A DNA stretch of 64,000 nt from Candidatus Dormiibacterota bacterium (GTDB lineage: Bacteria; Chloroflexota; Dormibacteria; CF-121), in contig DATBYO010000002.1 in assembly GCA_036513655.1 (NCBI GenBank), forward strand, positions 12,246-76,245, given 5' to 3'. The notes under the pieces are model-generated. The model worked only from the letters and a program-made list of their open reading frames with translations, was not told where the DNA came from and did no database searches. Below are positions 10,219-60,677 of this stretch, piece after piece (positions within the stretch are counted from its first letter, which is position 1; each line of letters starts with the position of its first letter). Both the position numbers and the translations under genes were made by a program.

Positions 10219-10256
10219 CTCCCTCCCCCCTTGCGGGGGAGGGTCGGAGTGGGGGC
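10219..10256 (+). repeat. GC-rich palindromic REP-like element, copy A
   Basis: TCTCCCTCCCCCC-TTGC-GGGGGAGGG-TCGGAGTGGGGG in the 45-bp convergent gap between the glpX stop and the CPBP stop. Confidence 0.7.
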
Positions 10257-10859
10257 TCAGTGGCGAAGCCGCCGGCGATAGACCAGGTACGGCCCCAGGC
10301 TGAGAAAGCCGCAGGTGATCGCGGCGTGGACGAGCACCGGGGCGAGTAACGACGGTGGCGACGGCTGCCAGAGATAGATCAGACCCAGGGCCAGGCCCGC
10401 AGCGCTGGCTCCGGCAACCTGGCGCCAGCCCCAGCGGTCGAGGAAGTGGTAGGCACCGAAGATCACGGTCGTCACCAGCACCGCAAGCGCCGGCGCACTC
10501 CACCATTGCGCCAGGCTGCCCTGCAGGAATCCGCGGAAGAACCACTCTTCGATCGGGGCGTTGAGCACCAGGTAATAGGCGCTCTGCACCAGCAGGTCGG
10601 GCTCGGTCGGAACAAACCAGCGGCCGCTCCGGCGCGACAGATAAATGTTGAACGCCGCGGCGATCGCAAACCCGGCCACCCCGGCAGGGACCGCCACGAG
10701 GAGGTCGCGAAGCGGATGGGTGATCACCAGCCCGAGGCTGCGCAGCGGCGTCCCTGACAGCCAGCTGAAGACGAACGGGACCAGGGTGAGGGGGACCAAC
10801 CGAAGGGGCAGGTCGAGGCGCATCCACGACCAGCTGCTCGCGACGGTCGTGCGTGTCAC
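10257..10859 (-). CDS. CPBP family intramembrane glutamic endopeptidase (CAAX protease/Abi)
   Basis: Motifs EEWFFRGFL (EExxxR), FGAYH (FxxxH) and HAAIT. Confidence 0.8.
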   Translation of the reverse strand: MTRTTVASSWSWMRLDLPLRLVPLTLVPFVFSWLSGTPLRSLGLVITHPLRDLLVAVPAGVAGFAIAAAFNIYLSRRSGRWFVPTEPDLLVQSAYYLVLNAPIEEWFFRGFLQGSLAQWWSAPALAVLVTTVIFGAYHFLDRWGWRQVAGASAAGLALGLIYLWQPSPPSLLAPVLVHAAITCGFLSLGPYLVYRRRLRH

Positions 10860-10879
10860 CTTCGGGGAAGGTCGTGCCG

Positions 10880-10917
10880 AATCCCCCTCCCCGTCTGGGG
10901 GAGGGTCGGGGTGGGGG
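10880..10917 (+). repeat. GC-rich palindromic REP-like element, copy B
   Basis: ATCCCCCTCCCC-GTCT-GGGGGAGGG-TCGGGGTGGGGG-TTAG, with the TTAG tail abutting the stop of the minus-strand Dabb gene. Confidence 0.7.
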
Positions 10918-11223
10918 TTAGTCCGAGTGATCGATGACGTACTGGATCGCTTCGCGCTGTGCCAGGATCGGCCGGATCAGATCCTGGATCACAGCCCGGT
11001 GATCGGGATGGTTTGCGTAGGTGGTCAGCCCTTCCTCGTCGCTGAAATCCGCGACCAGGGCGAAGTCGGCATTTCCGTCCTGGACGCCGAGGTCGCGGCC
11101 GAACCGATACGACTGGATGCACGGAATTTTTGCCGGCAGTTCATGTAGCGCGGCCTCGATCTTGGAGATGTCCTCGGCGGTGGCTTCCGGTTTCCAGCGG
11201 AAAAGGGCGACGTGGCGCAGCAC
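10918..11223 (-). CDS. Dabb-family stress-responsive A/B-barrel protein
   Basis: 101 aa with HVALFRWKPEATAEDI...ADFSDEEGLTTYANHPDHRAV. Confidence 0.75.
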   Translation of the reverse strand: MLRHVALFRWKPEATAEDISKIEAALHELPAKIPCIQSYRFGRDLGVQDGNADFALVADFSDEEGLTTYANHPDHRAVIQDLIRPILAQREAIQYVIDHSD

Positions 11224-11543
11224 CGGCGGCTAGGAGCGGATGGAGATCCCGGGCATCGTCGCCCGCTCGATCTCGGTTGGCGCCGACTCATCCATGGGCT
11301 GCATCCGGCGCGTGCTCGCGGCGAGGAACAGGAAACGCACCAGCGTGCGGCCGAGGCTCATGCGCATTCGAGCTTACCCGATCGCCTGCTGCTCGGCGGG
11401 TCTCCGCCCGCTCATGGTCGAGGCCGTGGATCCGCGAACGGTCGAGTCACGGGCAGCCCGATGGAAATCGTGCTGATGCCAATCGGAGGGCAAAAGGCCC
11501 CCAGGGAAACTCCGAGCATCGTGCGCCACTTTTGCGACACGAG

Positions 11544-12011
11544 TCAGGTGCCGCCGTCCGGACGTGTGCGGATTTCGCGGCCCAGCGGCTCGAGGGCCTC
11601 GGCGACGGCCGCCAGTTGGGCGGCTGACAGACGCTTGCCAAAATGCTCGCGGACCCCCTGGAGGTGGACCGGCCGGGCACGGCGGAGGCGGCTGGCGCCC
11701 GCCGGGGTCAGGATCGCGAACGTGCCCCGCCGGTCACCGGCACAGCTTCCTCGCTTGACCAGACCAGCCCGGGCCAGGCGGTCGACGAGCCGGGTGAGAC
11801 CGCTGCGGCTGAGGCGAACGCGTTCCGACAGCTCCGTCATTCGCAATCGGGTCCCCGGAGCCATCTTGAGCTGGACCAGGACGTCGAACTCCGCCAGCGT
11901 CATGTCGTCGCTTTTGAGGAGCTCCGTTTCCAGTTGGCGAAGCAGGGCGGCCTGGGCATCGAGAAAGGCGCGCCAGGCGCGCTCTTCGGCGGGTTTGAGC
12001 TCAGTGGCCAT
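11544..12011 (-). CDS. MarR family transcriptional regulator
   Basis: Winged HTH LTLAEFDVLVQL...SRSGLTRLVDRLARAGLV. It is divergent from yceI. Confidence 0.85.
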   Translation of the reverse strand: MATELKPAEERAWRAFLDAQAALLRQLETELLKSDDMTLAEFDVLVQLKMAPGTRLRMTELSERVRLSRSGLTRLVDRLARAGLVKRGSCAGDRRGTFAILTPAGASRLRRARPVHLQGVREHFGKRLSAAQLAAVAEALEPLGREIRTRPDGGT

Positions 12012-12096
12012 GTGGAATAGATTGTCTCACCGAATTGTTTGCAGTAGCGACTGTTGCATATACAACAATTTTGAGAGACCGGGAGGACAAAGCCAG

Positions 12097-12675
12097 ATGA
12101 AGTGGGCAATTGACGCGTATCACAGCAGTGTCACGTTTACGATCCGCCACATGATGTCGAAAGTGCGGGGTCAGATGAAGGTCAAGGAGGGCTGGATCGA
12201 GGTCGACGACGACAAGCTGAGCACGGCCAAGGTGGACGTTGTCCTGGATGCGGCGAGCATCGACACCGGAGTGGAGATGCGCGATAACCATCTGCGTAGC
12301 GCCGACGGTCACTTTGACGTCGCCAACTACCCGACCATCACCTTCAAGAGCACGCGAGTCGAGGGCAAGGATCCCTCCAACTTCAAGCTGATCGGCGACG
12401 TGACGATTCATGGCATCACCAAGGAAGTCGCGCTCGACGCGAGCTTCAACGGCGAGGGCAAGGACCCGTGGGGAAATCGTCGAGTTAGCTTCGATGCTGC
12501 GACCAGGCTAAACCGTAAGGACTACGACTTGACATGGAACCAGGCACTAGAGGCCGGCGGCTTCATCCTCGGTGATGAGGTCAAGCTCGAGATCGGCGTT
12601 GAGGCGATCCCGGCAGCGACGCCCGCCGAAGCCCAGAAGGAAATCGAAGCCGAAGCAGCGCTCGAGTCCCGCTAA
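12097..12675 (+). CDS. YceI family periplasmic/polyisoprenoid-binding protein
   Basis: ATG at 12097 with a GGGAGG SD. YceI motifs WAIDAYHSSVTF and GITKEV. The upstream 295 aa of the track ORF is spurious. Confidence 0.85.
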   Translation: MKWAIDAYHSSVTFTIRHMMSKVRGQMKVKEGWIEVDDDKLSTAKVDVVLDAASIDTGVEMRDNHLRSADGHFDVANYPTITFKSTRVEGKDPSNFKLIGDVTIHGITKEVALDASFNGEGKDPWGNRRVSFDAATRLNRKDYDLTWNQALEAGGFILGDEVKLEIGVEAIPAATPAEAQKEIEAEAALESR

Positions 12676-12691
12676 CCAACCCATTTCATTC

Positions 12692-12727
12692 AGCAGCCCG
12701 CCAGCGTTCTGGCGGGCTGCTTTTATT
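12692..12727 (+). terminator. Rho-independent terminator after yceI
   Basis: AGCAGCCCGCCAG-CGTT-CTGGCGGGCTGC followed by TTTTATT. Confidence 0.8.
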
Positions 12728-12766
12728 GCCCCAGGTGCGTCTTGATCGAGTCGATACAGTAAGCGG

Positions 12767-14161: not shown

Positions 14162-14170
14162 GGCCCCACG

Positions 14171-15475: not shown

Positions 15476-15623
15476 AAGGGACCACAGCGCGGGGAAAGCG
15501 GGAGGCCTCCTTCTACGGCGATGCCGTGGACGTCGTGACTGTCATAACGTGTGAACCGTTCGAGACGTTACGAGCCGTTTGGCCCATCCAGACCGTGCCG
15601 GGAGGGTCGTATAGTGGCCGCTG

Positions 15624-15893: not shown

Positions 15894-15937
15894 CGCACAA
15901 TTCACTGGTTCGCCGTCCACTTCCGTACCTGCTCGCC

Positions 15938-17089
15938 TTGTTGCTGGCGGCCGCGGCCTTCCAGTATTTCCGCCCGCTGCCGGTGACCGCCGCGAGCTTC
16001 ATCCTCCCGGCCACGGAGCGTCTCGGAACGGCGCCCACTTTACCCTGGCCGGCACAGGGCGAGGCCGCGCTATTCGTCGACGGGGTGGGCGAGGTGGGAA
16101 ACTCCGGCGGGCAGTCGCCCGTACCCATGGCCAGCACCGCCAAGTTGATGACCGCGTTACTCGTGCTCGAAGACCATCCCCTGGCGCTGAACGAACCGGG
16201 TCCGACCATCACTGTCACCCGGGCCGATGTCAGTACATACGTGACCGAACGAAACCAGAACGAATCGGTCGTTCCGGTGGTGGCCGGCGAGGAGCTCAAC
16301 GAGTTCCAGATGTTGCAGGGAGTGCTGCTGCCGTCGGCCAGTAACTTCGCGGCCATGCTGGCGAACTGGGACCTCGGCGGCGTCCCCGCCTTCGTCGAGC
16401 GCATGAATGCGAGGGCGGCGGCGCTGGGCATGAGCGCGACTCACTACGCCGATGTCAGCGGCTTCTCTCCGCAGAGCCTCAGCGTCCCGGCCGACCTGAT
16501 CAAGCTGGCCCAGACGGCGATGCGGCTGCCCGTGTTTGCCCAGATCGTCGCGCAGCCGCAGGCCACGCTGCCGGTCGCGGGTGTCGTTCGCAACCTCGAC
16601 ACTCTTCTCGGTCAGGGCGGCGTGGTCGGGATCAAGACGGGGCATACGGACCAGGCCGGCGGCTGCTTCGTGGTGGCGGCCGACCTGACCATCGATGGCG
16701 TAGGGACGCGCGTGTATGGCGCGGTGCTGGGCCAGCCCAATGCCCTGGCGGGCGCCTTCAAAGCAGCCAGCACACTGTTACAGGGGCTGGCCCCGGCCCT
16801 GCACCTCCGTCCAGTCGTGCGCCGCGACGACGTGGTCGCCCGATATCGCACGGCGTGGGATGAGGCCGGGGCGATCGTAGCCAGTCAGTCCGTCGCCTGG
16901 GTGCTGCCGGATGGGACGGCCGTCTCGCGCCGGGTGAAGCTGGACGACCTGCCGGCGATGGTGCCGGCCGGCACGCGGGTCGGGACGCTGTTCATCGAAG
17001 CCGGCTCCCACCAGGCCGAGGTTCCCCTGGTCATGGCCGCCGCGATCAACGGGCCGGACATCGGCTGGCGTCTGACGCACGGCTTCTAG
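15938..17089 (+). CDS. D-alanyl-D-alanine carboxypeptidase (S11 family penicillin-binding protein)
   Basis: SxxK (STAK), SxN (SASN) and KTG (KTGHT) motifs. TTG start in the track; the true start is uncertain. Confidence 0.8.
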   Translation: MLLAAAAFQYFRPLPVTAASFILPATERLGTAPTLPWPAQGEAALFVDGVGEVGNSGGQSPVPMASTAKLMTALLVLEDHPLALNEPGPTITVTRADVSTYVTERNQNESVVPVVAGEELNEFQMLQGVLLPSASNFAAMLANWDLGGVPAFVERMNARAAALGMSATHYADVSGFSPQSLSVPADLIKLAQTAMRLPVFAQIVAQPQATLPVAGVVRNLDTLLGQGGVVGIKTGHTDQAGGCFVVAADLTIDGVGTRVYGAVLGQPNALAGAFKAASTLLQGLAPALHLRPVVRRDDVVARYRTAWDEAGAIVASQSVAWVLPDGTAVSRRVKLDDLPAMVPAGTRVGTLFIEAGSHQAEVPLVMAAAINGPDIGWRLTHGF

Positions 17090-17096
17090 TGCTGCA

Positions 17097-17131
17097 CCTC
17101 CTCCCCGTCCGGGGGAGGGCAGGGTGGGGGT
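17097..17131 (+). repeat. GC-rich palindromic REP-like element, copy C
   Basis: CCTCCTCCCC-GTCC-GGGGGAGGG-CAGGGTGGGGG-TTAG between convergent gene ends. TTAG again supplies the stop of the minus-strand gene. Confidence 0.7.
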
Positions 17132-18231
17132 TAGCCTCCTCCCCAGGTGGACGGCTTGATGTCGATGCCGTCCGGGACGAAGAGGAGGCCAGCGCTGCGC
17201 CCGCTCCGGCCGGTGACGCCGTACTGCCAGACAATCGCGTTCGTCTTCGGGTCGACGATGATCACGCGATTCCGAAAGTCGTCATTGAGCGCGATCAGGC
17301 CATTGCTCAGCTCGATCGCGAGTGAGGGATGATCCAGCATGGCCGTGCCGGATCGGGGCGCATAGCGCCAGACGGCCCGTCCTTGTTTGGTCATGATCAG
17401 GATCTGCCCAGGCCGGGCGTAGTCGACCAGCAGGATGTTCCCGTCCGGGAGCATCTGCGCATCGGAGGGATAGCTGATGCCAGGCGCTCGCGTTGTCCAG
17501 TAGAGGGCGCCGTCCCAGCCGACTTCGCTCACCCACGCGCCCAGGATCTCGGTGATCAGGACATGGCCGTTCTCCAGCGGCGTGTCGCCGTTCGGCAAGC
17601 CGAAGCTCCTTGGCGGATTGTGGGCACAGTAGCCGGTGCGACCCAGCTGGCTCTTGACCGTTTTCGCGTCGTGGTTGACGAGGAGCACGCGGCAGTTGCG
17701 AATGTCCGCCACCCCGATGCTGCCGTCGGGCCACATGTAGGCATCGTCCGGACCGTTGAGATATCCCCGCGCGGATCCGCGATGTTCCGAAACGCCGTAC
17801 TGCCAGACGATCCGATGACTGGCATAGTCGACGAGCACGATGGCATGGGCTTCCTCCTCGTTGACGACGATCGATTTCCCATCCGGGGCATAGAAGGCGT
17901 CGTCGGGCCAGCGGAAGTGCTGGCCTGGCTGGAGGTCACCGGGCCGCGGAAACTCCCAGACGATCTGTCGGTCGGGGGTCACTTCGATCACCCGGTTGTT
18001 CGCGCGGTCGGCGATCAGGAGGTTGCCAGGCAGCACACCCGGGGCCGCGGTTGGTGGTGGCGCCTGTACCGTCAGCGGCGACGGTGAGGGCGGCGGAAGC
18101 TCCTCACCCTGTTGGGCCAGCTTCGCGCTTGATGACGAAGGCGTGGGCTGATTCGCGCAGGCGGTCAGCGCCAGAACCAGAAGGAAATGAAGCGGCAAAA
18201 CAGAAACCTGTTGCCTAAGGGATGCCGCCAC
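17131..18231 (-). CDS. Lipoprotein with beta-propeller-type repeats (NHL/YVTN-like)
   Basis: Signal peptide plus lipobox LALTAC. Repeated IVWQYG / DG...LLVDY motifs over 366 aa. Confidence 0.6.
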   Translation of the reverse strand: MAASLRQQVSVLPLHFLLVLALTACANQPTPSSSSAKLAQQGEELPPPSPSPLTVQAPPPTAAPGVLPGNLLIADRANNRVIEVTPDRQIVWEFPRPGDLQPGQHFRWPDDAFYAPDGKSIVVNEEEAHAIVLVDYASHRIVWQYGVSEHRGSARGYLNGPDDAYMWPDGSIGVADIRNCRVLLVNHDAKTVKSQLGRTGYCAHNPPRSFGLPNGDTPLENGHVLITEILGAWVSEVGWDGALYWTTRAPGISYPSDAQMLPDGNILLVDYARPGQILIMTKQGRAVWRYAPRSGTAMLDHPSLAIELSNGLIALNDDFRNRVIIVDPKTNAIVWQYGVTGRSGRSAGLLFVPDGIDIKPSTWGGG

Positions 18232-18317
18232 GTTGCCCGGAAGTATAGGTGAGGAAGTTGAATAGCGGCTGACCTGGAGAGCGGCCTTCAGTGCTAGTCT
18301 GAAATGAGGGCTGGACC

Positions 18318-20024: not shown

Positions 20025-20025
20025 G

Positions 20026-24133: not shown

Positions 24134-24894
24134 TGTCCGACTTGTTCACCGTCGAGGCTGTGATCCGGCGCCGCCTGCTCGTCAACTTTCGGGTAAGACC
24201 CGACATCCTGGCGCAAACCCTGCCGTTGCCGTTCGAGCCACGATTGGTACGCGGTTGGGGCATGGCGGGGATTTGCCTCATCGGTCTCGGCGATTTGCGG
24301 CCGGGCGGAGTGCCCGCCGTCCTCGGCCTGCGGACGGAAAACGCGGCACACCGCATCGCCGTTGAGTGGAACGATGAAACTGGTCGGCGCCAGGGCGTCT
24401 ACATTCCCCGCCGCGACACGAACTCGGCAGTCGTGCGAGCCCTTGGGGGGCGCTTCTTTCCCGGCGTCTACCGCCAGGGGACCTTTTCGATCAATGAGGA
24501 CGAGGGCTTCGTCAGCGTTCGCGTGCACTCTGCCGACGGCCGGGCCAACGCCTTCGTGTCCGGACACGTCAGCGATCGCCTTGCCAAGGGCTCAATCTTT
24601 GAGTCTCTTGACGAAGCGTCCAAGTTCTTCGAAGTGGGCAGTCTTGGTTTCTCGCCGAGCGCAGACCCCAACCGTCTGGACGGGTTGGAGCTGGTGTCGA
24701 AATGGTGGAAGGTGCAGTCTCTTGAGGTCGAAACGGTCGAGTCAGCCTTCTTTGGTGATACGGTGCTGTTCCCGGCGGGGTCCATCGAGTTCGACTCGGC
24801 GCTCATCATGCGCGCGATACCGTGTCGTTGGGAATCCCACGGCCCGATCGAGCCGTCGCCCATCGTCGCTGTCGCTAGCGGCTTGCTCGGCTAG
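24134..24894 (+). CDS. DUF2071 family protein
   Basis: VNFRVRPDILAQTLPLPFEPRLVRGWGMAGICLIG matches the DUF2071 N-terminus. ATG overlaps the upstream stop (TAATG). Confidence 0.6.
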
Positions 24895-26315
24895 AGGACG
24901 AGGGCCATCGGGCTCTGCAGGAGGCGCTTAACTTCCTGCAGGAATTGCGCGGCGGTCACCCCATAAAAGACCCGGTGATCGACGGATAGCGTGACGCGCA
25001 TCCGCTTGCCGGGCACCACCCGGCCGTCTTTGACGACCGCCTTGTCTTCGATCGCGCCGATCGCCAGGATGCCCGAATCGGGCGGGTTGATGATTGCGGT
25101 GAACTGGTCGACGTCGTACATGCCGAGGTTGGAGATGCTGAAGGTATTGCCGAGGTAGTCCTGAGACGAGGCCTTGTTCGTGCGGGCGCGCTCGATCAGC
25201 TGCTTCGACTCTTTCGCGATCTCCTTGAGCGGCTTCTGGTCGGCGTTGCGCAGCACCGGCACGATCAGGCGGTCGGGAAGACCGACGGCGATCCCGATGT
25301 TGATGTCGCGCTTGCGCTCGATCCGGCCGTCAGCCCATGAGGCGTTGACCTCGGGGAATTTCGTCAGGGCCAGCGCTACCGCCTTGACGACCAGGTCATT
25401 GAGGCTGATCGCCTCCGACTTGTCGACCGCCTCGTTGAACATCTGGCGGAGGCGGACCGCGTCGTCCATGGCGATCTCGGACGTAACGTAGAAATGCGGC
25501 GCCGAGAACATGCTCTGGGCGAGCCGCATCGCAATCGTTGACTGCATCTTGGAGAGCTCGACCACTTCGACCTCACCGGTGGGACGCGCGGTGGGTTGCC
25601 GCGCCTCGCCTCTGGGAGCAACGGCGGTGGGTGCGCCGGCCGCCTGCGGTTGGGCCGTCTGCTGCGCCGCGGCCTCGACATCTTCTTTGGTGATCCGTCC
25701 GCCCGGGCCAGAGCCTTGTACGCGGCTCAGGTCGACGTCGTGTTCTTCGGCGAGGCGCCGGGCGACCGGGGAGACGCGCTGGCGCTCGCCATTTTCTTGC
25801 TGAGCCGGCCGGCGAATGACATTCAACGCGGCCTGCGCGGCGGCACCGACTTCGGTGCGGTCGTCGGGTCCGCCGTGCGGGTACTGTTCCCCGCCGGCAT
25901 CGGCGGCCGCCTGGGCGGTTGCCGCCACAGCGTTATCGGCCTGCGCGACGTGCGCTTCCGGCTTGGTCGCTTGCGGCTTTGGTGCTTCGGCGGTGGCGGG
26001 CTTGGGGCCTTGGGTCGGCTCGGCCGCTCCCGCCTGGCCCTGCGCGGCGGCCGGCTTGTCAGACTTGGCTGCCGGTTGGCCCTCGCCACCGATCTCGGCG
26101 ATGACGGCCCCGATGGGCGCACTTTCGCCTTCGGGAACGAGGATCTTGCTCAGCTTGCCGGAGGCGTAGGCCTCGACCTCAATGTTCGCCTTGTCGCTCT
26201 CGATCTCGACCAGCGGCTCGCCTTTGACGACCTGGTCACCCTCTTTCTTCAGCCAGCGCAGGATCTTGCCGGTCTCCATGGAGTCCGACAGCCGCGGCAT
26301 CTGGACGCTGGCCAT
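24891..26315 (-). CDS. 2-oxoacid dehydrogenase E2 component (dihydrolipoamide acyltransferase)
   Basis: Lipoyl domain (EIESDKANIEVEA), PSBD (SPVARRLAEEHDVDLSRVQGSGPGGRI) and a catalytic DHRVFYG motif. Confidence 0.9.
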   Translation of the reverse strand: MASVQMPRLSDSMETGKILRWLKKEGDQVVKGEPLVEIESDKANIEVEAYASGKLSKILVPEGESAPIGAVIAEIGGEGQPAAKSDKPAAAQGQAGAAEPTQGPKPATAEAPKPQATKPEAHVAQADNAVAATAQAAADAGGEQYPHGGPDDRTEVGAAAQAALNVIRRPAQQENGERQRVSPVARRLAEEHDVDLSRVQGSGPGGRITKEDVEAAAQQTAQPQAAGAPTAVAPRGEARQPTARPTGEVEVVELSKMQSTIAMRLAQSMFSAPHFYVTSEIAMDDAVRLRQMFNEAVDKSEAISLNDLVVKAVALALTKFPEVNASWADGRIERKRDINIGIAVGLPDRLIVPVLRNADQKPLKEIAKESKQLIERARTNKASSQDYLGNTFSISNLGMYDVDQFTAIINPPDSGILAIGAIEDKAVVKDGRVVPGKRMRVTLSVDHRVFYGVTAAQFLQEVKRLLQSPMALVL

Positions 26316-31697: not shown

Positions 31698-32918
31698 TCA
31701 CGCCGGGCTCTGGCCGGCGACTGAGGCCCGAACGCTGTCGCCGTCGGGCGATGCGCCAGGCAGCTCCAGATAGAAGGTTGTGCCCTTGCCTTCGAGGCTG
31801 TTTGCCCAGGCGCGTCCCCCGTGCGCCTCGGCCACCCGGCGCAGCAAGTAGAGCCCCAGGCCCTCGCCGCGGGCCGGCTGCTCTTCCGCGAGTGGCGCGA
31901 AGAGCTCGGCCAGGCGGTCGGCCGACATCCCGGGACCATCGTCCTTCACGATCAACTGACAGCGGTCGCGGCTCGCCTGCCGCAGCCGGAGCTGCACCAC
32001 CGTAGCGCTGTGCGCGTGCTTGAACACGTTGTGGAGCATCTCGTCGAGCGCCGCCTCGAGCAGCGTCGCATCGCCCCAGACATCCGCCTGTGTGTCGAGT
32101 TGGACCCGCAGCTCCATCCCGACATTCGCCATCCGCTCGCGGATGCGCTGCGCCGCCGACTGGGCGACGGCCCCCAGTGAAACGCGGACGGTGAACGTCA
32201 GGTCGAGCGGCAGCCGGGAGAGCAGCAATACCTGGTCCGCGACGCGCATCAGCGTTTCCGACTGGAGGGCCAGGCGTTGCGCCACCACCGACATCTGGTC
32301 GGCTGGGACCTCGTTGTTATTCAGCATGTCGGCGTAGCCGCGCAGGATCGCCAGTGGTTCCTTCACCTCGTGCGAGGCGAGCCGCATGGCTGACACCGGC
32401 GTGCGTGACTGGCCATTGCGCTTGGACTCGGGTTGCAGTCGTGGCCCAAGCAACCCGGCCACGACCAGGAGGACGTCCTGGTCGTCTGGCGTGAAGATTC
32501 GGGCGCCTTTGCCGAGTACCGCCAGGGTACCGGCGGCCTCCCCGGTGCTCCCGCGCCAGGAAGTGCCCAGGTAGCTCACGATGCCGAGCTGTTGGCGCAT
32601 CGCCAGGCTTTTGAATGGCTGGCGTTTTCCGGCATCACGAACATTGATGATGCCGCCGTCGTTTTCCTCGTCGACCGCAGCAAACGTCGCCTCGAGCGGG
32701 AGGCGGAGCCCCGGCTCGATGGCGGGCCCGCTCTCGACGACGGCGGCCATGATCTCGAGCGCCTGTTCATCGATCTTGCCCAGGAACGCGGCGCGGGCAT
32801 CGAGGGCCTGCAGCAGGCAATTCAGCGCGTGGTCGATGACTTCGGGAAGGGGCCGGTTGAGATTGGCGACCACCAGGCGGCGGACGAGGCTCAGGGATGA
32901 CTGGTGGTCAGGGCTCAT
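31698..32918 (-). CDS. GAF-domain sensor histidine kinase
   Basis: N-terminal GAF domain, H-box MRLASHEVKEPLAIL and HATPase motifs (DDGPGM, GLGLYL). ATG at 32918. The additional 193 aa of the track ORF read through the REP elements and are spurious. Confidence 0.8.
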   Translation of the reverse strand: MSPDHQSSLSLVRRLVVANLNRPLPEVIDHALNCLLQALDARAAFLGKIDEQALEIMAAVVESGPAIEPGLRLPLEATFAAVDEENDGGIINVRDAGKRQPFKSLAMRQQLGIVSYLGTSWRGSTGEAAGTLAVLGKGARIFTPDDQDVLLVVAGLLGPRLQPESKRNGQSRTPVSAMRLASHEVKEPLAILRGYADMLNNNEVPADQMSVVAQRLALQSETLMRVADQVLLLSRLPLDLTFTVRVSLGAVAQSAAQRIRERMANVGMELRVQLDTQADVWGDATLLEAALDEMLHNVFKHAHSATVVQLRLRQASRDRCQLIVKDDGPGMSADRLAELFAPLAEEQPARGEGLGLYLLRRVAEAHGGRAWANSLEGKGTTFYLELPGASPDGDSVRASVAGQSPA

Positions 32919-32954
32919 GAAGGGGCGCCCACGGTTATAACACGGCCGACCCCT

Positions 32955-33025
32955 GTGAATTCCCTCCGGCTCCGGGGGAGGGTCAGCCCACGTGATTCCC
33001 TTCCCCTCCGGGGGAGGGTCAGGGT
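32955..33025 (+). repeat. GC-rich palindromic REP-like elements, tandem copies D1 and D2
   Basis: TTCCCTCCGGCTCCGGGGGAGGGTCAGCCC-ACGTGA-TTCCCTTCCCCTCCGGGGGAGGGTCAGGGTGGCGG in the divergent HK/PHP intergenic region. Confidence 0.65.
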
Positions 33026-33057
33026 GGCGGCCACATACCACATAAAATGGGCGACCA

Positions 33058-33936
33058 TTGGCAAAGGTATCCAACGGGCGCGCGAACCTGCACCTGCACA
33101 CGATCTTCAGTGACGGAGAGCTCCCGCCGGCCGAGATCGTGGCCGCCCACGCCGCGGCGGGGTTCGAAGTCATCGCCCTGACCGACCACGACACATTGGC
33201 CGGGATCGACGCCATCGGCGGCCTGGAGGGACATGGCGTGCGGGCGATCTCGGGTGTCGAGCTGTCGATCGAGGATGAACCAGGCCGTGGCCTGGTCGAC
33301 ACCCATTTGCTCGGGTACGGATTTGGCCTCAACAACCGGCGCTTGCGCAATCGTCTCCACGAAGCCAGCGAGGCCCGCGAGGCGCAGAAGGTGGAAACGG
33401 TGCGCCGGCTGGCAGCGGCCGGCTTCAAGGTTGCGTGGGAGGCGGTGCGCGCCCGTGCGCGCGGCAACGTCGGCAAGCCGCATATCGTGGCGGCCATCGA
33501 GGCCGCGCAGCCCGGCGTCGCTCGCGAAGACCTCTATGCCCTGATGGGTCCGGGTGGCATGGCTCATGTGCCACGCGCCAAAGAACTCTCGCTCGATGAG
33601 GCGGTGGACCTGGTCACCGCCGCCGGCGGCGTCACGGTGCTGGCGCACCCCGGCGTGTACGATCACGTTCCCGATCTGGAGGTGCTGTTTCGAACCTGCG
33701 CCGTTGCCGGCGTGCTCGGACTGGAGGTCACCTACCCGCAGGCCCCGGACGATCCCTATGGGCCGAAGAGTGCGGTGTTGATGGAACGCTTCTCGAAGGC
33801 GGCCACCTCCTACGGCTGGGTGGCGACCGGCGGCGACGATTTCCATGGGCCGCAGGTGACGCCGCTGATCCGGCTGGCGGGCTGGACCGCGACGCCGGCG
33901 ACCTGCGCGGACGAGCTGTTGCAGCGCAGGCCCTAA
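33058..33936 (+). CDS. PHP-domain metal-dependent phosphoesterase (TrpH/YcdX-like)
   Basis: Motifs NLHLHTIFSDG, ALTDHDT and VLAHPG. Confidence 0.8.
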   Translation: MAKVSNGRANLHLHTIFSDGELPPAEIVAAHAAAGFEVIALTDHDTLAGIDAIGGLEGHGVRAISGVELSIEDEPGRGLVDTHLLGYGFGLNNRRLRNRLHEASEAREAQKVETVRRLAAAGFKVAWEAVRARARGNVGKPHIVAAIEAAQPGVAREDLYALMGPGGMAHVPRAKELSLDEAVDLVTAAGGVTVLAHPGVYDHVPDLEVLFRTCAVAGVLGLEVTYPQAPDDPYGPKSAVLMERFSKAATSYGWVATGGDDFHGPQVTPLIRLAGWTATPATCADELLQRRP

Positions 33937-51560: not shown

Positions 51561-51562
51561 TC

Positions 51563-52276: not shown

Positions 52277-52279
52277 GGA

Positions 52280-53811: not shown

Positions 53812-53862
53812 GGAGCAACTATAAACGGCGGTTGCTCGCACCGCCGCTATCCTTGGTGGTCG

Positions 53863-54772: not shown

Positions 54773-54818
54773 GGCGCGAGGTTAACCCCCGGTTTTGACA
54801 GCTGTCTGTCGCAACCGC

Positions 54819-57800
54819 CTAACGCGGGACTTCTTCTTCGATCTCGTCGCGGGTGGACCCGTTCGCCGGCGCCGCCTCCGCCGATGCGGGAATCAGCGCC
54901 GGGCCGGGAAGCCGAATGATGGTCCAGTCCTCGGCCTTTTCGGCGCGATCGGCGAGCCCTTCGTCCTTCGAGAAGAGGATGATCTGGTGCTCCCGGCCGA
55001 GGCGGCCCAGCTCCTCGAGCGCCGCTCGCATCCGCCGGCGATCCGCGTGCACCAGCGCCTCGTCGAGCAACAGGGGTGGTGGCTCCGCGTTTCCACCGAT
55101 GATGCGCGCCAAAGCCAGCCGCTCCAGGAGATAGATCAAGGAGCGGGTGCCGAGACTGAGGTTGTCGACATCCTTATAGACCCGCTGGTCCTGGGTCTTC
55201 ACCGACAGTGCCAGGTCTTCCCCGATGCGGACATCCCGATACCGGCCGTTGGTGATCGGCGCCAGTTGACCCTGCAGCTGCGACTTGAGCCGTGGGATCA
55301 CCGCCCGTCGGACCGACTTGGCCGCCGCTTCCAGGGTGTCGATGGCGAGATCGTAGGCGTGGGCTTCGACTTCGAGCTCCTGGAGCTGTTCGCGGGTGGT
55401 GGCGATCTCCTCTTCGAGGGCGGCGACGTCGCCGGTCTGGGTCAACCGGTCGTTCAAGAGCTCTTCGGCGCGCGCCCGCTCCTCCTGGGCCCGCTCCTTG
55501 GCGCCGCGGTGCTGGTCGCGCTGGCGTTCCAGCTCGGCCAGCGGCAGGGTGGCGAACTCGGCCGCGCGCGCCGGGTCGACGCTGGGGCTAACCTCGGCCA
55601 GCTGATGGTCCAGGTCTTCGACGAGCTGGCGGAGCGATGCCCCTTCGTCGGCGGACGTCGCGCCTCGCTGCCCCTCCAACTCGGCCAGCTTGGCGCTCGA
55701 CGCCCGATAGGCCTCCCCGTGGATGACCCCGGCGTCCCAGGCCTGGGCCGCTCGCTCCATATCGGTCTCCGTGATCCCGGCCGGGCCGTAGATGGCCGCA
55801 AGCTGTCGGGCGTAGTCCTCGGCCTTGCCGCGCTCGGTTGCCGAACGCTGTCCCGGCGCGCGTAGCTGCTCGAGCTGGGCGTCCAGCTGCTCGATTCGGG
55901 TGCGCACCTGCTGGGCCGTCCGAGCGGCTTCGCAGCTGGCAATGAAATCGCGGGCGGCCCCAAGCGCCTCTCGGCGGTCGAAACCCAGCCGGTCCAGCAG
56001 GCTGTGCAATTGCTGTCGAAGCGTTTCGCGGCGCTGATCCATCTCGGATTCCGCCCGCGACGCCTCGAGCGACCGCTGGCTGCTGGCGTTCCAGGCAAGG
56101 GTGTCCTGGGCCAGCGATTCGATCTCTCTGGCGATCTCGTCGACGGCCTCCTCGGTCGGCGCGGGCTGCGGCATGCCCCACGAGCCCACCAGCTCGCGGA
56201 GGCTGCGGCCCGCAAGCTGCGCCCGCTCCTCCAACTCGGTGGCCTGCCGATCGAGCTCGAGTCGGGTGGCGTCGTAGCGCACCTTCTGAAGGTGCTCGAC
56301 GAGCGCCTGCTGCAGTTCCGCCGAGCTCCGCACGCCCCACGGCTGGAGGATTTCTCGCCGCTTGACCCGAGCCTCGTCCTTCGCCCGGAGGCGGCGATCG
56401 ACCTCACGCACGGCCGCGCCCCGCACCCAGATGCCGATGCCGGTCGAGAGCACGCCCATGCCGAGCAGAAAGAAGGCGGCGCCGCTCAGGGGAAGCGGCA
56501 TCCCCCCTTGCAGGGCGAGAAATGCCACGAGGATGGCCATCGCCGTCAGCAGCAGGCCGCCGAGCATCGCCCCCAGGAAGGTGCGCTGCCGGCTGCGGGC
56601 CCGCTCGGCCATCGCCTCTTCACGCCGCATCGACTCCTCCGCCTGCTGGCCGGATTTGATGACGTCGGGCACCTCTTTGTAGCGCGCGATGTCGTGTTTG
56701 AGCTGCTCCAGGCGTGGGGGTAGCTCGGCGCCCGCCCGGCGCCGGGCCTCGAGCGCGACGTTATGGCGCTCCCGCCACTCCGAATAGACCCGCTGGAATT
56801 CCATCTGGCGAGCCGGCCAGTCCAGGTTCTGTCCGATCAGGCCCGGGTGGCGCTCCGCGATCCGCCGCGCCTCCTCGGCCGCCGACTGGGCGCGAAGGTG
56901 AACGTCGGGCGCCTGGGTGTCGGCCACGTTGAGCGTGGAAAGCAGCTCGCGCACAGCCGGCTCCTCCGCGAGCGCCGCCGCGTCGATGCCGCGGGCTCGC
57001 GTCTCATGGCCTTGTGCGTCGGCGTTGAGCTTCTGCCGCTCGGCTTCGAGCTGCTGCACCTGGGCGATGGTGTTCGCGGCGCGACCCTCGAAGTCCTCCT
57101 GAGCCTCCCGAGTCGCTCGCAGGTGGCTGCGAAGGTCCTGGACCTCGGCCTGGCGATCGAGGGGAAACATCGCGAAGCGGGTGTGCTCCTCCTGCCGGCC
57201 GCGTTCCTCGGCGATCACCTGCTCCAGCGCGTCGACCCGCTCCAGGCGATGACGCGCCTCGGCGAGGCGAGAGGCAAGCACCGCGGCCTCGAGCGTTTGC
57301 ACGATCCCGAGCTCCGCCTCGGTCAGGGCGGAGACGGTCTCCCGCTTCTGTGCCAGCTCGTCGACGGCGGCGCGGGCCTGACGCGCCGTCGTGAGCTGCC
57401 GCTCCAGGTCGGTGAGGTGACCTTCGAGGTCGTGAAGTGGGCCGGTGCGCCCACGCGGCTTTCCAATCCGGCGGGCCCGCTCCTGGCGCAGCCGATCGAG
57501 CACGCGCTGCGCCGTCCGGTCGGGATGCGCCGAGTCGGCCAGGGCGACGATCGCTTCCTTGATGCTGCCGGCGTCTTCGAGACGTAGGACCTCGCTTCGC
57601 GAGATACAGGCGGTGTTCGTGTAGATATCGCGGCTGACACCGAGCAGCTGGCGTCCGACTTGCAGGCCACCGGAGGCATCCCGTTCGAAGCGCTCGCCGA
57701 GCTCGGCACCGGTGTTGACGTCGATGACGCGGACCGTCTCCGCGTCGAGATCGCGCTCGACCCGGAGCTGCGTCCCATCTTCCAGTTCCACCTCGAGCGC

Positions 57801-58031
57801 CAACCCGAAGTTGCCACCTTGCCAGGGACGCCAGCGGTCGGCGCGCTCCACCAGCGCCGTCCGGGCGTGATCGCCCGACTGGAGGCCGTAGAGGCCGGTG
57901 ACGATAGCCTCCTGCAGTGTCGATTTGCCCGCCTCATTGGGCCCCACGACCAGGTTCATCGTGGGACCGAAGCGCAGGTCCATTCCTTGCAGGCTGCCGA
58001 AGCCCTCGATCTCGATCCGTGTCAGGCGCAT
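54819..58031 (-). CDS. SbcC/Rad50-like AAA ATPase with two transmembrane helices inserted in the coiled-coil region (YhaN/SbcE-like)
   Basis: Walker A GPNEAGKST, ABC signature LSLGTRSLIYL and Walker B/D-loop LLLDEALVHAD. A hydrophobic TFLGAMLGGLLLTAMAILVAFLAL...AAFFLLGMGVLSTGIGIWV segment sits mid-protein. 1070 aa. Confidence 0.8.
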   Translation of the reverse strand: MRLTRIEIEGFGSLQGMDLRFGPTMNLVVGPNEAGKSTLQEAIVTGLYGLQSGDHARTALVERADRWRPWQGGNFGLALEVELEDGTQLRVERDLDAETVRVIDVNTGAELGERFERDASGGLQVGRQLLGVSRDIYTNTACISRSEVLRLEDAGSIKEAIVALADSAHPDRTAQRVLDRLRQERARRIGKPRGRTGPLHDLEGHLTDLERQLTTARQARAAVDELAQKRETVSALTEAELGIVQTLEAAVLASRLAEARHRLERVDALEQVIAEERGRQEEHTRFAMFPLDRQAEVQDLRSHLRATREAQEDFEGRAANTIAQVQQLEAERQKLNADAQGHETRARGIDAAALAEEPAVRELLSTLNVADTQAPDVHLRAQSAAEEARRIAERHPGLIGQNLDWPARQMEFQRVYSEWRERHNVALEARRRAGAELPPRLEQLKHDIARYKEVPDVIKSGQQAEESMRREEAMAERARSRQRTFLGAMLGGLLLTAMAILVAFLALQGGMPLPLSGAAFFLLGMGVLSTGIGIWVRGAAVREVDRRLRAKDEARVKRREILQPWGVRSSAELQQALVEHLQKVRYDATRLELDRQATELEERAQLAGRSLRELVGSWGMPQPAPTEEAVDEIAREIESLAQDTLAWNASSQRSLEASRAESEMDQRRETLRQQLHSLLDRLGFDRREALGAARDFIASCEAARTAQQVRTRIEQLDAQLEQLRAPGQRSATERGKAEDYARQLAAIYGPAGITETDMERAAQAWDAGVIHGEAYRASSAKLAELEGQRGATSADEGASLRQLVEDLDHQLAEVSPSVDPARAAEFATLPLAELERQRDQHRGAKERAQEERARAEELLNDRLTQTGDVAALEEEIATTREQLQELEVEAHAYDLAIDTLEAAAKSVRRAVIPRLKSQLQGQLAPITNGRYRDVRIGEDLALSVKTQDQRVYKDVDNLSLGTRSLIYLLERLALARIIGGNAEPPPLLLDEALVHADRRRMRAALEELGRLGREHQIILFSKDEGLADRAEKAEDWTIIRLPGPALIPASAEAAPANGSTRDEIEEEVPR

Positions 58032-58061
58032 GAGCGACTCACCACGATGTCCAAAGCAGAG

Positions 58062-59156
58062 TCATTCGTCGAAGGCATCGAGCGCCAGCTGCAACGCGCG
58101 GCCAACGGCCTCTTCCTCCTGGCGGGACCCCTGCTTGTGGTCGACCAGCTTGCGCACCATCTCCCCACGGCTGGTGAATTCTTGAGCGGCGGCACCGAGG
58201 TCGTGGGAGACGCGCGAGTGGTCCTGGAACTCGAGATAGGCGAATCCATCGCTACACTCGGTTGAGAGCATCTGGGGATCGAGGTTCAGCGCCCGGTCGC
58301 GCTCACCCACGAGGCTGGCCCGGAGCACGGCGCCGTCCAGTCGCTTGCTCTCCCGCATCGCCATCACCGCGTCGCGGACGTGGTCGAGGGTCGTCATCCC
58401 GGTGATGTCGATCGTCTCCTGGGCAAACTGCCGCTGGTTGATGTCTTCCAGCAAAACCTGGACGCCCCCACCGTCATCGATGGTCACCAGCGCCGTGCAG
58501 TGCCGTCCGGTCTCGCTCCAGCCAAGCGGCTCCGGGCTACCAGGGTAGGTGATCGAGTCCTTCGTGCCGGCGTCGTGGTAATGCCCGAGGAGCGCATGCC
58601 GGAACCCGGCCTCCTCGACCTGGGCGGGCAGGATCGGCTTGTAGGGTGTGATGCCTGGCGGCACCTGGCTCATGTCGGAGGCGTGCAGTAGCAGCAGGTG
58701 CGTTCCCTCTTCCTGCCGGACGAAATCACGCAGCGGCGCGTCCGGCACGTCGGGCCGCATGAAGCCGGCGGTCCAGATGTGGACGTTGCCGTAGCGGTAG
58801 GCGTGCAGGTCTTCGTGGGCCGCGATGGTGACATTCTCGGGCCAGCGGAGGTAGCGGTAGGGGGAGCTCGCGACGGCCGGATCGGTGTGGCCGGGGGCAA
58901 TCAGTACCGGCAGCCCCGACTGACCCAACGTCTGCACGATGAAGCTGGCGGTTTCGCGAGTCACATGATCCTGTTCGAACAGGTCGCCGCCGCAGGTGAT
59001 CAGGTCGGCCTGCGCCTCGCGGGCCCGCTGGACGATCCGTTGCAAGGCCGAGCGGAGATCCTCGCGGCGTCGTTGGGCGCCGACGCCAAACAGGCGCTCA
59101 CTGGCGAAGGATCGGTCGAGATGCAGGTCGGCGAAATGGAGCAGGCGAAGGGCCAC
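58062..59156 (-). CDS. SbcD/Mre11-family metallophosphoesterase (DNA repair exonuclease, YhaO/SbcF-like)
   Basis: Calcineurin-like motifs LHFADLHLD, GGDLFE and GHYHD. It lies immediately upstream of, and co-oriented with, the SbcC-like gene. Confidence 0.8.
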   Translation of the reverse strand: MALRLLHFADLHLDRSFASERLFGVGAQRRREDLRSALQRIVQRAREAQADLITCGGDLFEQDHVTRETASFIVQTLGQSGLPVLIAPGHTDPAVASSPYRYLRWPENVTIAAHEDLHAYRYGNVHIWTAGFMRPDVPDAPLRDFVRQEEGTHLLLLHASDMSQVPPGITPYKPILPAQVEEAGFRHALLGHYHDAGTKDSITYPGSPEPLGWSETGRHCTALVTIDDGGGVQVLLEDINQRQFAQETIDITGMTTLDHVRDAVMAMRESKRLDGAVLRASLVGERDRALNLDPQMLSTECSDGFAYLEFQDHSRVSHDLGAAAQEFTSRGEMVRKLVDHKQGSRQEEEAVGRALQLALDAFDE

Positions 59157-59235
59157 AAATCCCCCGTAACCACGCGAATTCGGCCTGGCGCGATGGCATA
59201 GGCGAGCGGAAAAGCAGCGCCCATTATAAAGGTTG

Positions 59236-59278
59236 GGCCGAATTTGTTCCGCATCAGCCGGTCCAATTCGGAACAGCC
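59236..59278 (+). promoter_or_regulatory. Candidate operator: inverted repeat TGTTCCG-N16-CGGAACA with flanking AATT(C)GG motifs (a third GAATTCGG at 59176-59183)
   Basis: GGCCGAATTTGTTCCGcatcagccggtCCAATTCGGAACAGCC in the 140-bp divergent region between sbcD-like and the WYL regulator. Confidence 0.4.
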
Positions 59279-59296
59279 TCTACACTGAGCAAGAAA

Positions 59297-60259
59297 ATGG
59301 GCTCCTTCGAGAAGGGTGACCGCGGCGCCCGGATCCTGAAGATCCAGACGTTGCTCCAGGGTAATCCGCACGGCTTGACCACCGGCGAGATCGCCCGCCG
59401 CACCGGGGTCAACCCGCGCACCACCTATCGCGACGTTCGGGCACTCGAAGCCATGAACGTGCCGGTCTACGAGGACCACGGCCGGATCGCGATCGACCCG
59501 AACTACTTCGTCGCCCCGGTCAAGTTCACCCTCCGCGAGGCGATGGCCCTGCTGATGGGCGTTCGCCTGATGCACCGGCATCGTGACCAGGCCGATCCCG
59601 ACGTCGCCGACGCGTTCACCAAGCTGGCGGCGGTCCTCCCGGCGCCCGTCGCGGAGTACGTCCACGCCACCGTGCGGCAGATGGCCGATCGCCCGTCGAA
59701 CCCGACCTATTCGCGGGTCCTGCAGACGATCGCGCTCAGCTGGGCTGGTCACAAGACGGTCCGGATCTGGTATCCGAGCGCGAACCACGAGGCGAAGCCG
59801 CGCGTGATCGAGCCGTACTTTCTTGAGCCATCGCTGATCGGACACAGCAGCTACGTGGTTGCGCGCGATCGCGGGCTGAAGGAAATGCGAACCTTCAAGC
59901 TGGAACGCATCACCCGTGCCGAGCCGATGACCGAGACCTATCAGATTCCTCCAGAGTTCGATGTCAACAGATACCTGGCCGGAGCCTGGGGCATCTTCCA
60001 CTCCGGCGAGCCGGTAGCGGTGCGTCTGCGCTTCTTTTCGCCGGCGGCCGCGCGCGTGAAGGAATCAATCTGGCATCCATCGCAGAAGCTCAGCGATGGG
60101 CCGAAGGGTTCGGTCAACATGACGGTCACCGTGACCGGGACGCTCGAGATCACGCCCTGGATCCTCGGATGGGGTGATGCCGTCGAGGTCATCGCCCCCG
60201 CGGACTTGCGCAAGAAGATCAGCGACGTCGGTACGAAAATGGCAGCGCGCAACAAATAG
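59297..60259 (+). CDS. WYL-domain transcriptional regulator (HTH-WYL-WCX; PafBC/DeoR-like)
   Basis: N-terminal HTH (LTTGEIARRTGVNPRTTYRDVRALE), WYL core (TVRIWYPSANHEAKPRVIEPYFL...YVVARD...MRTFKLERI) and a C-terminal extension. Confidence 0.8.
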   Translation: MGSFEKGDRGARILKIQTLLQGNPHGLTTGEIARRTGVNPRTTYRDVRALEAMNVPVYEDHGRIAIDPNYFVAPVKFTLREAMALLMGVRLMHRHRDQADPDVADAFTKLAAVLPAPVAEYVHATVRQMADRPSNPTYSRVLQTIALSWAGHKTVRIWYPSANHEAKPRVIEPYFLEPSLIGHSSYVVARDRGLKEMRTFKLERITRAEPMTETYQIPPEFDVNRYLAGAWGIFHSGEPVAVRLRFFSPAAARVKESIWHPSQKLSDGPKGSVNMTVTVTGTLEITPWILGWGDAVEVIAPADLRKKISDVGTKMAARNK

Positions 60260-60269
60260 GAGGATGAGG

Positions 60270-60635
60270 GTGGACGTCTTTCAGGCGGTCGCGAAATTGA
60301 AGCCATCGCGGATCTGGGACGGCGTGCTCGCGCGCGTCGTCAATGGTGAGAGGCTTTCGATCGGCTTCGTCGACATCGACCCCAATGTGCAGGTTCCCGA
60401 ACACCGGCACGAGAACGAGCAGGTCGGGTTCGTCCTACGCGGTTCGGTGACCATGGTGGTCGGCGGCAAAGCACGCGAGCTCCAGGTGGGGGAGACGTAC
60501 ACGATCACCAGCCAGGTTCCCCACTCCGCCAAGGCCGGCGCCGAGGGGGTGTCGGTGGTGGACGTCTTCGCGCCGGTTCGTGAGGATTGGACGACCAAGC
60601 CTACGGTCGAACCGTTCCCCGGACGGTGGCCATAG
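60270..60635 (+). CDS. Cupin domain protein
   Basis: Cupin motifs PEHRHENEQVGFVLRG ... YTITSQVPH. GTG start 6 nt after an AGGAGG SD. Confidence 0.7.
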   Translation: MDVFQAVAKLKPSRIWDGVLARVVNGERLSIGFVDIDPNVQVPEHRHENEQVGFVLRGSVTMVVGGKARELQVGETYTITSQVPHSAKAGAEGVSVVDVFAPVREDWTTKPTVEPFPGRWP

Positions 60636-60639
60636 GGAG

Positions 60640-60677
60640 ATCTCCCTCCGGGGGAGGGTCGGGGGCGGGGCGTCAGC
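60640..60677 (+). repeat. GC-rich palindromic REP-like element, copy E
   Basis: AGATCTCCCTCC-GGGGGAGGG-TCGGGGGCGGGG-CGTCAG between convergent cupin and SDR genes. Confidence 0.7.

Follow-up and report, generated by a model that had tools for sequence, protein, structure and literature searches.

The 64,000-nucleotide (nt) stretch of the genome of a Candidatus Dormiibacterota bacterium analysed here (GenBank assembly GCA_036513655.1, contig DATBYO010000002.1, positions 12,246 to 76,245; referred to below as the window) carries six short GC-rich palindromic repeats, el1 to el6. Judged from their sequence, they are very probably more or less decayed members of the intrastrand-triplex repeat class described as BoxC, PIT or TMECO. 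Taken together, the data favour the view that they are non-coding repeats of this triplex class acting at the level of DNA, selfish or near-neutral, which turn over at gene boundaries. An earlier note on this DNA had pointed out the six palindromes. They are present where it placed them, all on the + strand, and are far more numerous than chance would allow: two core patterns expected 0.01 and 0.17 times per window were observed four and five times.

The unit measures about 40 nt and is read on one strand. A T-rich 5′ edge (ATYT; variants ATCT, ATTT and AATT) is followed by a 9-nt pyrimidine (Y) arm, a loop of 3–6 nt, a complementary 9-nt purine (R) arm, a second loop of 2–3 nt and a 9-nt G/T (H) arm that mirrors the R arm; the 3′ edge varies. 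The G-rich tail repeats the purine arm in mirror image, A being changed to T (GGGGGAGGG, TCG, GGGTGGGGG), and reading GGGTGGGGG antiparallel on GGGGGAGGG gives a purine-motif triad (G.GC or T.AT) at every position. This tail, which the earlier note overlooked, is the predicted third strand of a purine-motif intrastrand triplex, and it is by this feature that the element belongs to the BoxC/PIT/TMECO class as published (PMC4666352). In a three-block test, el1, el2 and el5 were exact, el3 was recovered with a 2-nt second loop, and el4 and el6 were decayed. The same hairpins viewed on the reverse strand gave only 1–4 triads. In 922 kb of sequence (cross-phylum loci and the window together), a triplex scanner detected 220 elements, against none in shuffled copies.

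BoxC was first named in Escherichia coli, later described as the PIT (potential intrastrand triplex) element and then as TMECO (Holder et al. 2015, PMC4666352, where the PIT element work of Hoyne and Maher 2000 and 2002 is cited). The published TMECO pattern, CCCTCNCCC N3-6 GGGNGAGGG N3 GGGNGAGGG, describes a class II purine-motif triplex, in which the antiparallel third arm may form G.GC, A.AT or T.AT triads with no more than one mismatch. The E. coli oligonucleotides form triplexes as seen by circular dichroism (CD) and nuclear magnetic resonance (NMR), with melting temperatures of 70–82 °C, and polymerase stops ahead of the triplex strand. The motif occurs 3610 times in 262 proteobacterial genomes and has been tied to local genomic variability (PMC4666352). 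Of 5426 complete E. coli genomes, 5425 contain the published type A 36-mer; the median genome has it at 19 sites, and no annotated feature lies beneath it.

The window elements share with this class an identical layout of 9-nt pyrimidine arm, 3–6 nt loop, 9-nt purine arm, loop of about 3 nt and 9-nt antiparallel reverse-Hoogsteen arm. Both are intergenic and multi-copy, both include some copies with one mismatched triad, both vary in presence among close relatives, and neither has an associated mobile-element gene. The arms differ: by sequence, the window subtype is CCCTCCCCC / GGGGGAGGG / GGGTGGGGG, whereas the E. coli arms are CCCTC(T/G)CCC / GGGAGAGGG / GGGTGAGGG. The main departure is compensated on three strands, one T.A.A triad being replaced by C.G.G, so that a C:G duplex and a G in the third arm (position 6) stand where E. 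coli has T:A and A. We have therefore filed the window repeat as a sister subtype and not as the E. coli sequence family itself. Its host belongs to the Dormibacterota and not to the Proteobacteria, and its density (6 per 64 kb) is roughly 10–20 times that in E. coli K-12 (23 per 4.6 Mb). The window copies are single or in direct tandem on one strand, whereas E. coli copies occur on both strands and also as inverted pairs. A literature search with 15-mers of the exact variant sequence gave no match, and shorter strings returned only eukaryotic noise.

The six copies are of uneven quality (Table 1). While el1, el2 and el3 are near-intact, el5 has two defects, and el4 and el6 are decayed. An nhmmer profile trained on 24 elements from relatives only, with no window sequence included, recovers exactly these six copies, with E values from 3e-8 to 0.013, and no further site on either strand of the window. 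A seventh, decayed copy suspected in the E2 linker of the window (about 25600–25660) was unsupported by this profile and was dropped. The folding energies of the hairpins do not distinguish them from shuffles of equally GC-rich sequence (z from +0.3 to -2.2), and for this reason folding energy was not used as evidence.

Table 1. Position, structure, quality and gene context of the six window copies (Y, R and H, pyrimidine, purine and third arms; WC, Watson–Crick)
Copy	Position (strand)	Arms and loops	Pairs and triads	nhmmer E	Gap	Left gene	Right gene
el1	10221-10255 (+)	Y arm CCCTCCCCC 10221-10229, loop CTTGC, R arm GGGGGAGGG 10235-10243, loop TCG, H arm GAGTGGGGG 10247-10255	9 WC pairs, 8/9 triads	3e-8	45 nt, convergent	glpX (+, stop 10209-10211)	CPBP/Rce1-like protease gene (-, stop 10257-10259)
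el2	10885-10917 (+)	Y arm CCCTCCCC(G), loop TCT, R arm GGGGGAGGG 10897-10905, loop TCG, H arm GGGTGGGGG 10909-10917	1 WC mismatch, 9/9 triads	2.9e-6	co-directional	CPBP gene (-, start 10823, with el2 57 nt upstream)	Dabb gene (-) 3′ end, stop TTA 10918-10920 abutting
el3	17099-17130 (+)	Y arm (T)CCTCCCC, loop GTCC, R arm GGGGGAGGG 17111-17119, 2-nt loop CA, H arm GGGTGGGGG 17122-17130	1 WC mismatch, 8/8 triads (8-nt register)	1.4e-5	41 nt, convergent	S11 D-Ala-D-Ala carboxypeptidase gene (+, stop 17087-17089)	PQQ-like propeller gene (-, stop TTA 17131-17133)
el4	32962-32982 (+)	CCCTCC, loop GGCTCC, GGGGGAGGG then TCAGCCCACG; third arm / G-rich tail missing (truncated copy)		0.01 (match spans model positions 8-34 only)	139 nt, divergent, direct tandem pair with el5	histidine kinase gene (-, start 32918)	PHP gene (+, start 33058)
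el5	32998-33030 (+)	Y arm CCCTTCCCC, loop TCC, R arm GGGGGAGGG 33010-33018, loop TCA, H arm GGGTGGCGG 33022-33030	1 WC mismatch, 1 triad mismatch (8/9 triads)	1.2e-4	as el4	as el4	as el4
el6	60644-60670 (+)	CCCTCC directly before GGGGGAGGG (6-bp stem, 3-nt loop), TCG, GGGGCGGGG; degenerate tail	7/9 triads	0.013	42 nt, convergent	cupin gene (+, ends 60635)	SDR gene (-, stop 60678-60680)

Comparative evidence on the third arm came from covariation. We collected all pyrimidine/purine hairpins in the fetched loci (numbered with the prefix L, and including syntenic loci of relatives) with a purine arm other than the common one, and scored the downstream sequence adjoining each of them. The triad scores were bimodal: 51 elements reached 9/9, none scored 8 and the remainder scored 7 or less. 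The elements' own purine arm was a better fit than the consensus purine arm in 51 of 51 cases, and the mirror register beat the parallel register in all 36 elements with asymmetric arms. When the H arms were permuted among elements, a mean of about 10 of the 51 reached 9/9. Seventeen of the 51 (the GGGGGGAGG type) may be the common type seen in a shifted register; the remaining 34 represent eight further purine-arm types, such as GGGAGAGGG with GGGTGAGGG, GGGGGAAGG with GGATGGGGG and GGGGAGGGG with GGGGTGGGG.

The same data bear on the suggestion of the earlier note that the G-runs form G-quadruplexes. The E. coli elements have been read in this way by Kaplan et al. 2016 (PMC5100583), and the four G-tracts of the R and H arms could fold into a quadruplex in competition with the hairpin, with a regulatory effect on replication or transcription. 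The canonical motif (four tracts of at least three G, loops of 1–7 nt) is indeed present in el2, el3 and el6, for which ViennaRNA with quadruplex energies prefers the competing quadruplex, and the CD spectra of the E. coli HPG2 oligonucleotides shifted in K+ relative to Li+/Mg2+ (PMC5100583). However, the motif is missing from el1, el4 and el5, and the canonical three-tetrad form is absent from six of the ten variant arm pairings (16 of the 34 elements), all of which keep 9/9 triads; consequently, the quadruplex, although possible in three window copies, is not a conserved feature of the family. Nor does a quadruplex predict that a T/A in the H arm should mirror an A in the R arm, and the NMR spectra of TMECO oligonucleotides, with 18 imino signals, were interpreted as triplex and not quadruplex (PMC4666352). 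A quadruplex/hairpin switch is thus highly improbable as the explanation of the element. On the sequence data, it is the mirror symmetry, that is, the predicted triplex potential, that is maintained, and not the quadruplex potential. The E. coli 'G-quadruplex-hairpin-duplex switch' (HPGQ) motifs of PMC5100583 likewise comprise four G-tracts in a G-rich block, flanked on the 5′ side by a conserved C-rich sequence that can form a hairpin. Judged by their description alone, these motifs seem identical with the BoxC/TMECO elements of E. coli, although PMC5100583 does not mention BoxC. The structure is read there as a quadruplex, while our comparative data favour the triplex register.

According to the gene calls and Pfam matches, all six copies lie in gaps between called genes. 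Four convergent gaps and one divergent gap had been proposed; in fact three gaps are convergent (el1, el3 and el6), one is co-directional (el2) and one is divergent (el4/el5). The proposal that elements sit flush against the stop codon of a minus-strand gene is true of el1 (TCA, 1 nt after the element), el2 and el3 (both TTA, 0 nt); for el6 the true minus-strand stop is CTA at 60678–60680, 8 nt away. The peptides obtained by translating through the elements are, as the earlier note supposed, spurious and artefacts of GC-rich sequence. The long mechanical open reading frames (ORFs) at 31698–33497 (-), 10114–10827 (-) and 11212–12675 (+) cross elements or genes of the opposite strand, and the frame of 599 residues that holds PPPEGKG.../PPPEPEGI is an artefact, the real start of the histidine kinase gene being at 32918. 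In the cross-phylum set, 30–36% of elements lie within 80 nt of ORF 3′ ends, as against 13% of random positions, with no left/right asymmetry relative to the ORF ends.

Such a position could point to a role at the level of RNA, either as a GC hairpin in the 3′ untranslated region that guards the mRNA from 3′ exonucleases or as a bidirectional or U-tract-independent terminator. Stop codons immediately precede four of the five loci, the cross-phylum enrichment near 3′ ends agrees with this, and the RNA hairpins predicted for el1–el3 reach about -21 to -25 kcal/mol on both strands. However, no copy fits the pattern of a hairpin followed by a T-run, as the earlier note had observed in setting aside a classical terminator: the hairpins run into TCG and G-runs. 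A terminator scan of 8–19 kb did not call el1–el3. It did call the structure at 12692–12721; window positions 12692–12727 (+), after a YceI gene, form a textbook intrinsic terminator with a 13-bp GC stem and TTTATT. Rfam gave no match over the whole window at gathering thresholds and none on the elements at E<=10 over 10.1–17.3 kb, and no tRNAs were found in the window. Relatives that lack the element have overlapping convergent genes, so that no such signal is needed there. The orientation of the element is set by strand and not by gene direction. Purine-motif triplexes cannot form in RNA (PMC4666352), which leaves the covariation of the H arm unexplained, and in E. coli the PIT elements are described as acting neither as promoters nor as terminators (Hoyne and Maher 2002, as cited in PMC4666352). 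An RNA-level role of either kind is very unlikely to be what the element is for; stabilization of RNA would explain neither the third arm nor the fixed strand.

The window is part of a soil-metagenome contig of 88.7 kb (ENA ERZ27314128, k141_2503863). Its GlpX is 89% identical to a protein of a Candidatus Dormibacteraeota metagenome-assembled genome, other named relatives being labelled Chloroflexi or Limnocylindrales. Insertion polymorphism, which the earlier note had proposed to look for, is seen as filled and empty orthologous gaps at glpX, CPBP-Dabb, S11 and several other sites. The gap 3′ of glpX is filled in the window and in L136 (92% GlpX identity). It is empty in L130 (96%) and in L132–L135 (93%), where glpX and CPBP overlap by 4 nt (1424–1427 in L130, 1973–1976 in L132), and it is also empty in L126–L129. 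The CPBP-Dabb gap is filled in the window, in L136 (by a degenerate copy of the GGGAGAGGG type), in L183 and in L190, and empty in L130 and L132. Among the 64 gaps read downstream of S11, those of the window and L193 are filled, L208 and L227 hold decayed copies, and most are empty; in many element-free relatives, such as L205, L210, L241 and L244, the convergent stop codons of the S11 and PQQ genes overlap as CTAG. Since the element entered a gap of zero length, the only survivable spot would have been exactly between the stops, and this would account for the copies that lie flush against stop codons.

Conversely, several sites are filled in relatives and empty in the window, namely behind the terminator at 12692–12721, in the amidase/exonuclease gap and after the topoisomerase IB gene. 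In L183 and L190 the element stands immediately after a terminator homologous to that at 12692–12721. There is no element in the 75 kb of L126–L129, and there are 24 in the 661 kb of the S11 set. The CPBP gene, which in the window is flanked by el1 and el2 as direct repeats, is absent from L127 and L128 (89% GlpX identity), in which glpX and Dabb are 13 nt apart (11023–11037 and 1680–1694, respectively; compare window 10211–10918). Closer relatives carry CPBP without elements; consequently, the gene and the elements were not gained together. Downstream of glpX, positions 11249–16214 of L126 hold IS110-type (DEDD_Tnp_IS110 and Transposase_20), IS256-type (Transposase_mut) and rve integrase genes; the Dabb gene there is seemingly truncated, and there is no triplex element at the junction.

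In two cases the element has become part of a reading frame. The CPBP ORF of L136 (1063–1668, -) runs through the element of the glpX gap and ends in ...RAPTLPSPASGGGKIPL, 13 residues longer than in element-free relatives; the window CPBP ORF stops 1 nt before el1. In L231 an E2 dihydrolipoamide acyltransferase ORF (4390–5751, -) contains an intact in-frame element at about 5100–5145, in the linker before the catalytic domain, where it is translated as ATPTPTLPRERGREMD; this ORF of 453 residues is otherwise colinear with the window E2 of 474 residues (24891–26315, -). Enterobacterial RU repeats have been found inside genes (PMC2759123), and the L231 linker and the L136 tail resemble these RU/MITE repeats (MITE, miniature inverted-repeat transposable element) and the Rickettsia palindromic elements in being palindromic repeats translated in frame. 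The Rickettsia palindromic elements, which sit in frame in genes, measure 100–150 nt, are lineage-specific and have no triplex arm. They thus differ from the shorter triplex family, where intragenic copies are exceptional.

A turnover of this kind recalls repetitive extragenic palindromic (REP) sequences, to which the earlier note had likened the elements. The guess was reasonable as regards lifestyle. They are a genuine interspersed family of non-coding repeats that contain a palindrome. If they were REP-like in the strict sense, they would be lineage-specific palindromes mobilized in trans by a REP-associated tyrosine transposase (RAYT) that recognizes the hairpin on single-stranded DNA; RAYT genes commonly have REPs on their flanks. 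In line with the REP reading, they are short, GC-rich, interspersed and intergenic with a palindromic core, their presence differs between close relatives or strains, and their strict orientation in this lineage is as expected of a one-strand mechanism; in other phyla, 70 of 81 close pairs are inverted doublets, like REPINs (REP doublets forming hairpins). However, the 5′ edge is ATYT, with no GTAG/CTAC tetranucleotide at the head, and arms of this sequence are shared by at least 12 phyla, whereas a REP family is confined to one species or genus. The called genes of window 1–61.5 kb include no RAYT or other Y1 transposase and no transposase of another type; none was seen near 216 elements elsewhere, and no RAYT is among the called genes of the relatives' loci examined. 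When the genes up to 1.5 kb from these 216 elements were compared by all-against-all blastp, none recurred except for one cluster, the only one spanning more than three loci, that resembles ABC-transporter ATPases, as judged from an example sequence. The conserved, covarying and mirror-symmetric third arm is also left unexplained. A RAYT-driven REP family is thus quite unlikely. As for MITE features, comparison of filled and empty sites by inspection revealed no target-site duplication and no terminal inverted repeat beyond the hairpin.

The orientation of the copies deserves separate consideration. The G-rich strand is the window + strand in all 6 window copies, in the 24 found in 80 syntenic loci of relatives and in the 2 of L136. 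After clustering by flanks these represent 13 distinct sites (two-sided binomial p ~2e-4). The orientation is constant across convergent gaps, the divergent gap, the gap between two minus-strand genes and the copy inside a minus-strand ORF. One reading would be a co-transcriptional pause site, in which the G-rich non-template strand of the upstream + gene folds behind RNA polymerase, stabilizes an R-loop and ends transcription, and about 7 of 10 mapped sites in the region are indeed just downstream of a + gene, in sense orientation. The position of el2 between two minus-strand genes, that of el4/el5 in a divergent gap, the unchanged orientation of the L231 copy within a minus-strand ORF and the lack of left/right asymmetry at ORF ends in the cross-phylum set all speak against such a pause site, which we regard as barely credible. 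The window + strand has a weak positive GC skew (0.018) and carries about 57% of the coding sequence by a rough tally of gene calls, which makes the direction of replication an obvious candidate for the origin of the strand bias. Across phyla, no link between element strand and local GC skew was detected (54 versus 73; 7 versus 16 for single elements in strongly skewed loci) in loci of 8 kb, which are a weak proxy for replication direction. The single elements of E. coli MG1655 (K-12), counted from published Table 1, are divided 8 to 5 between the strands.

The unit is widespread. One genome per GTDB species was scanned with the 21-mer GGGGGAGGGTCRGRGTGGGGG, which does not include the left (Y) arm, and at least 120 stretches matched. 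Although the pyrimidine arm was absent from the pattern, 119 of the 126 matches listed bear CCCTCCCCC (at most one mismatch) just upstream. The unit is present in at least 12 phyla, the matches listed coming from Alpha-, Beta-, Gamma- and Deltaproteobacteria, Chloroflexota, Dormibacterota, Armatimonadota, Nitrospirota, Planctomycetota, Verrucomicrobiota, Bacteroidota, Bacillota and Spirochaetia. Viral or proviral contigs of IMG/VR (L139–L171) gave 35 matches to the 21-mer, 32 of them with the pyrimidine arm. The inverted arrangement of most close pairs in the cross-phylum set has no counterpart in the window, which has only single copies and one direct tandem pair. On the alphaproteobacterial chromosome OZ251449.1 (L043, L057, L066 and L076), inverted pairs are spaced 13–120 nt apart, in a REPIN-like manner. 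In L007 (7060–7301), L050 (5305–6782) and L107 (two copies about 227 nt apart) the elements lie within longer repeats, with identical flanks of 25–40 nt on both sides and a spacing of about 180–230 nt, which suggests tandem duplication of larger units.

A plausible scheme for a triplex-class repeat at gene boundaries would be as follows. Once the G-rich strand is single-stranded, the Y and R arms would pair as a hairpin, and the H arm would turn back to lie antiparallel along R in the major groove, joined to it by reverse-Hoogsteen triads (G.GC and T.AT). Copies would be gained and lost at gene boundaries by a copy-in process, probably acting on the folded single strand, and would survive only at harmless spots such as intercistronic gaps, the space separating two stop codons or disordered linkers of proteins. 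The main consequence for the host would be local sequence instability and not gene regulation. Several observations weigh against this view. To our knowledge, no enzyme or copying mechanism has been described for these repeats, and no copying enzyme was found near the 216 elements. The one-strand orientation at 13 sites is not predicted by a purely neutral model, and the location of four of the five loci at gene 3′ ends may reflect an RNA-level by-effect. The strict TMECO regular expression has no match in the window, each copy being 2–3 substitutions away from it. Triplex folding has been demonstrated for the E. coli elements only, in vitro, and is predicted for the window subtype; in vivo dimethyl sulfate footprinting in E. 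coli saw no stable triplex (PMC4666352).

Some neighbouring genes may be mentioned. A 1070-residue SMC/AAA_23 protein (54819–59156, -) adjoins a 364-residue metallophosphatase (59297–60259, +), and by their domain content the two would form an SbcC/SbcD-like pair; a gene for a WYL-domain regulator lies beside them, and all three are 1.5–6 kb from el6. SbcCD cleaves DNA hairpins. A bacterial type IB topoisomerase gene (Top1B_N_bact and Topoisom_I) at 6992–8128 (+) is conserved in the syntenic loci of relatives.

Repeats of the BoxC/PIT/TMECO kind have been known since the 1990s, and we know of no function or spreading mechanism established for them. The window element belongs to this already described kind; what is new is the subtype, the phylum, the comparative evidence on the third arm and the strand bias. 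The class is abundant beyond the Proteobacteria, here in an uncultured soil phylum, and the covariation of the three-strand register among subtypes provides comparative evidence that the triplex, and not the quadruplex or the bare hairpin, is maintained. The turnover of copies at gene boundaries is fast, and a copy can become part of a coding sequence; for annotation, recognizing the unit removes spurious ORFs and accounts for odd C-terminal tails. In this lineage the orientation is strict, and if the strand bias follows the direction of replication, it would point to a single-strand propagation mechanism. One may speculate further, with little confidence, that the Dormibacterota triplex unit is an active strand-specific mobile element, copied into one strand (for example, the lagging-strand template at the replication fork) by an enzyme or host process that recognizes the folded structure of hairpin and third strand rather than the sequence. 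If this were true, intrastrand triplexes would be a recognition structure for DNA mobility, which would explain both the spread of the unit across phyla and a repeat class that has been an orphan for 30 years.

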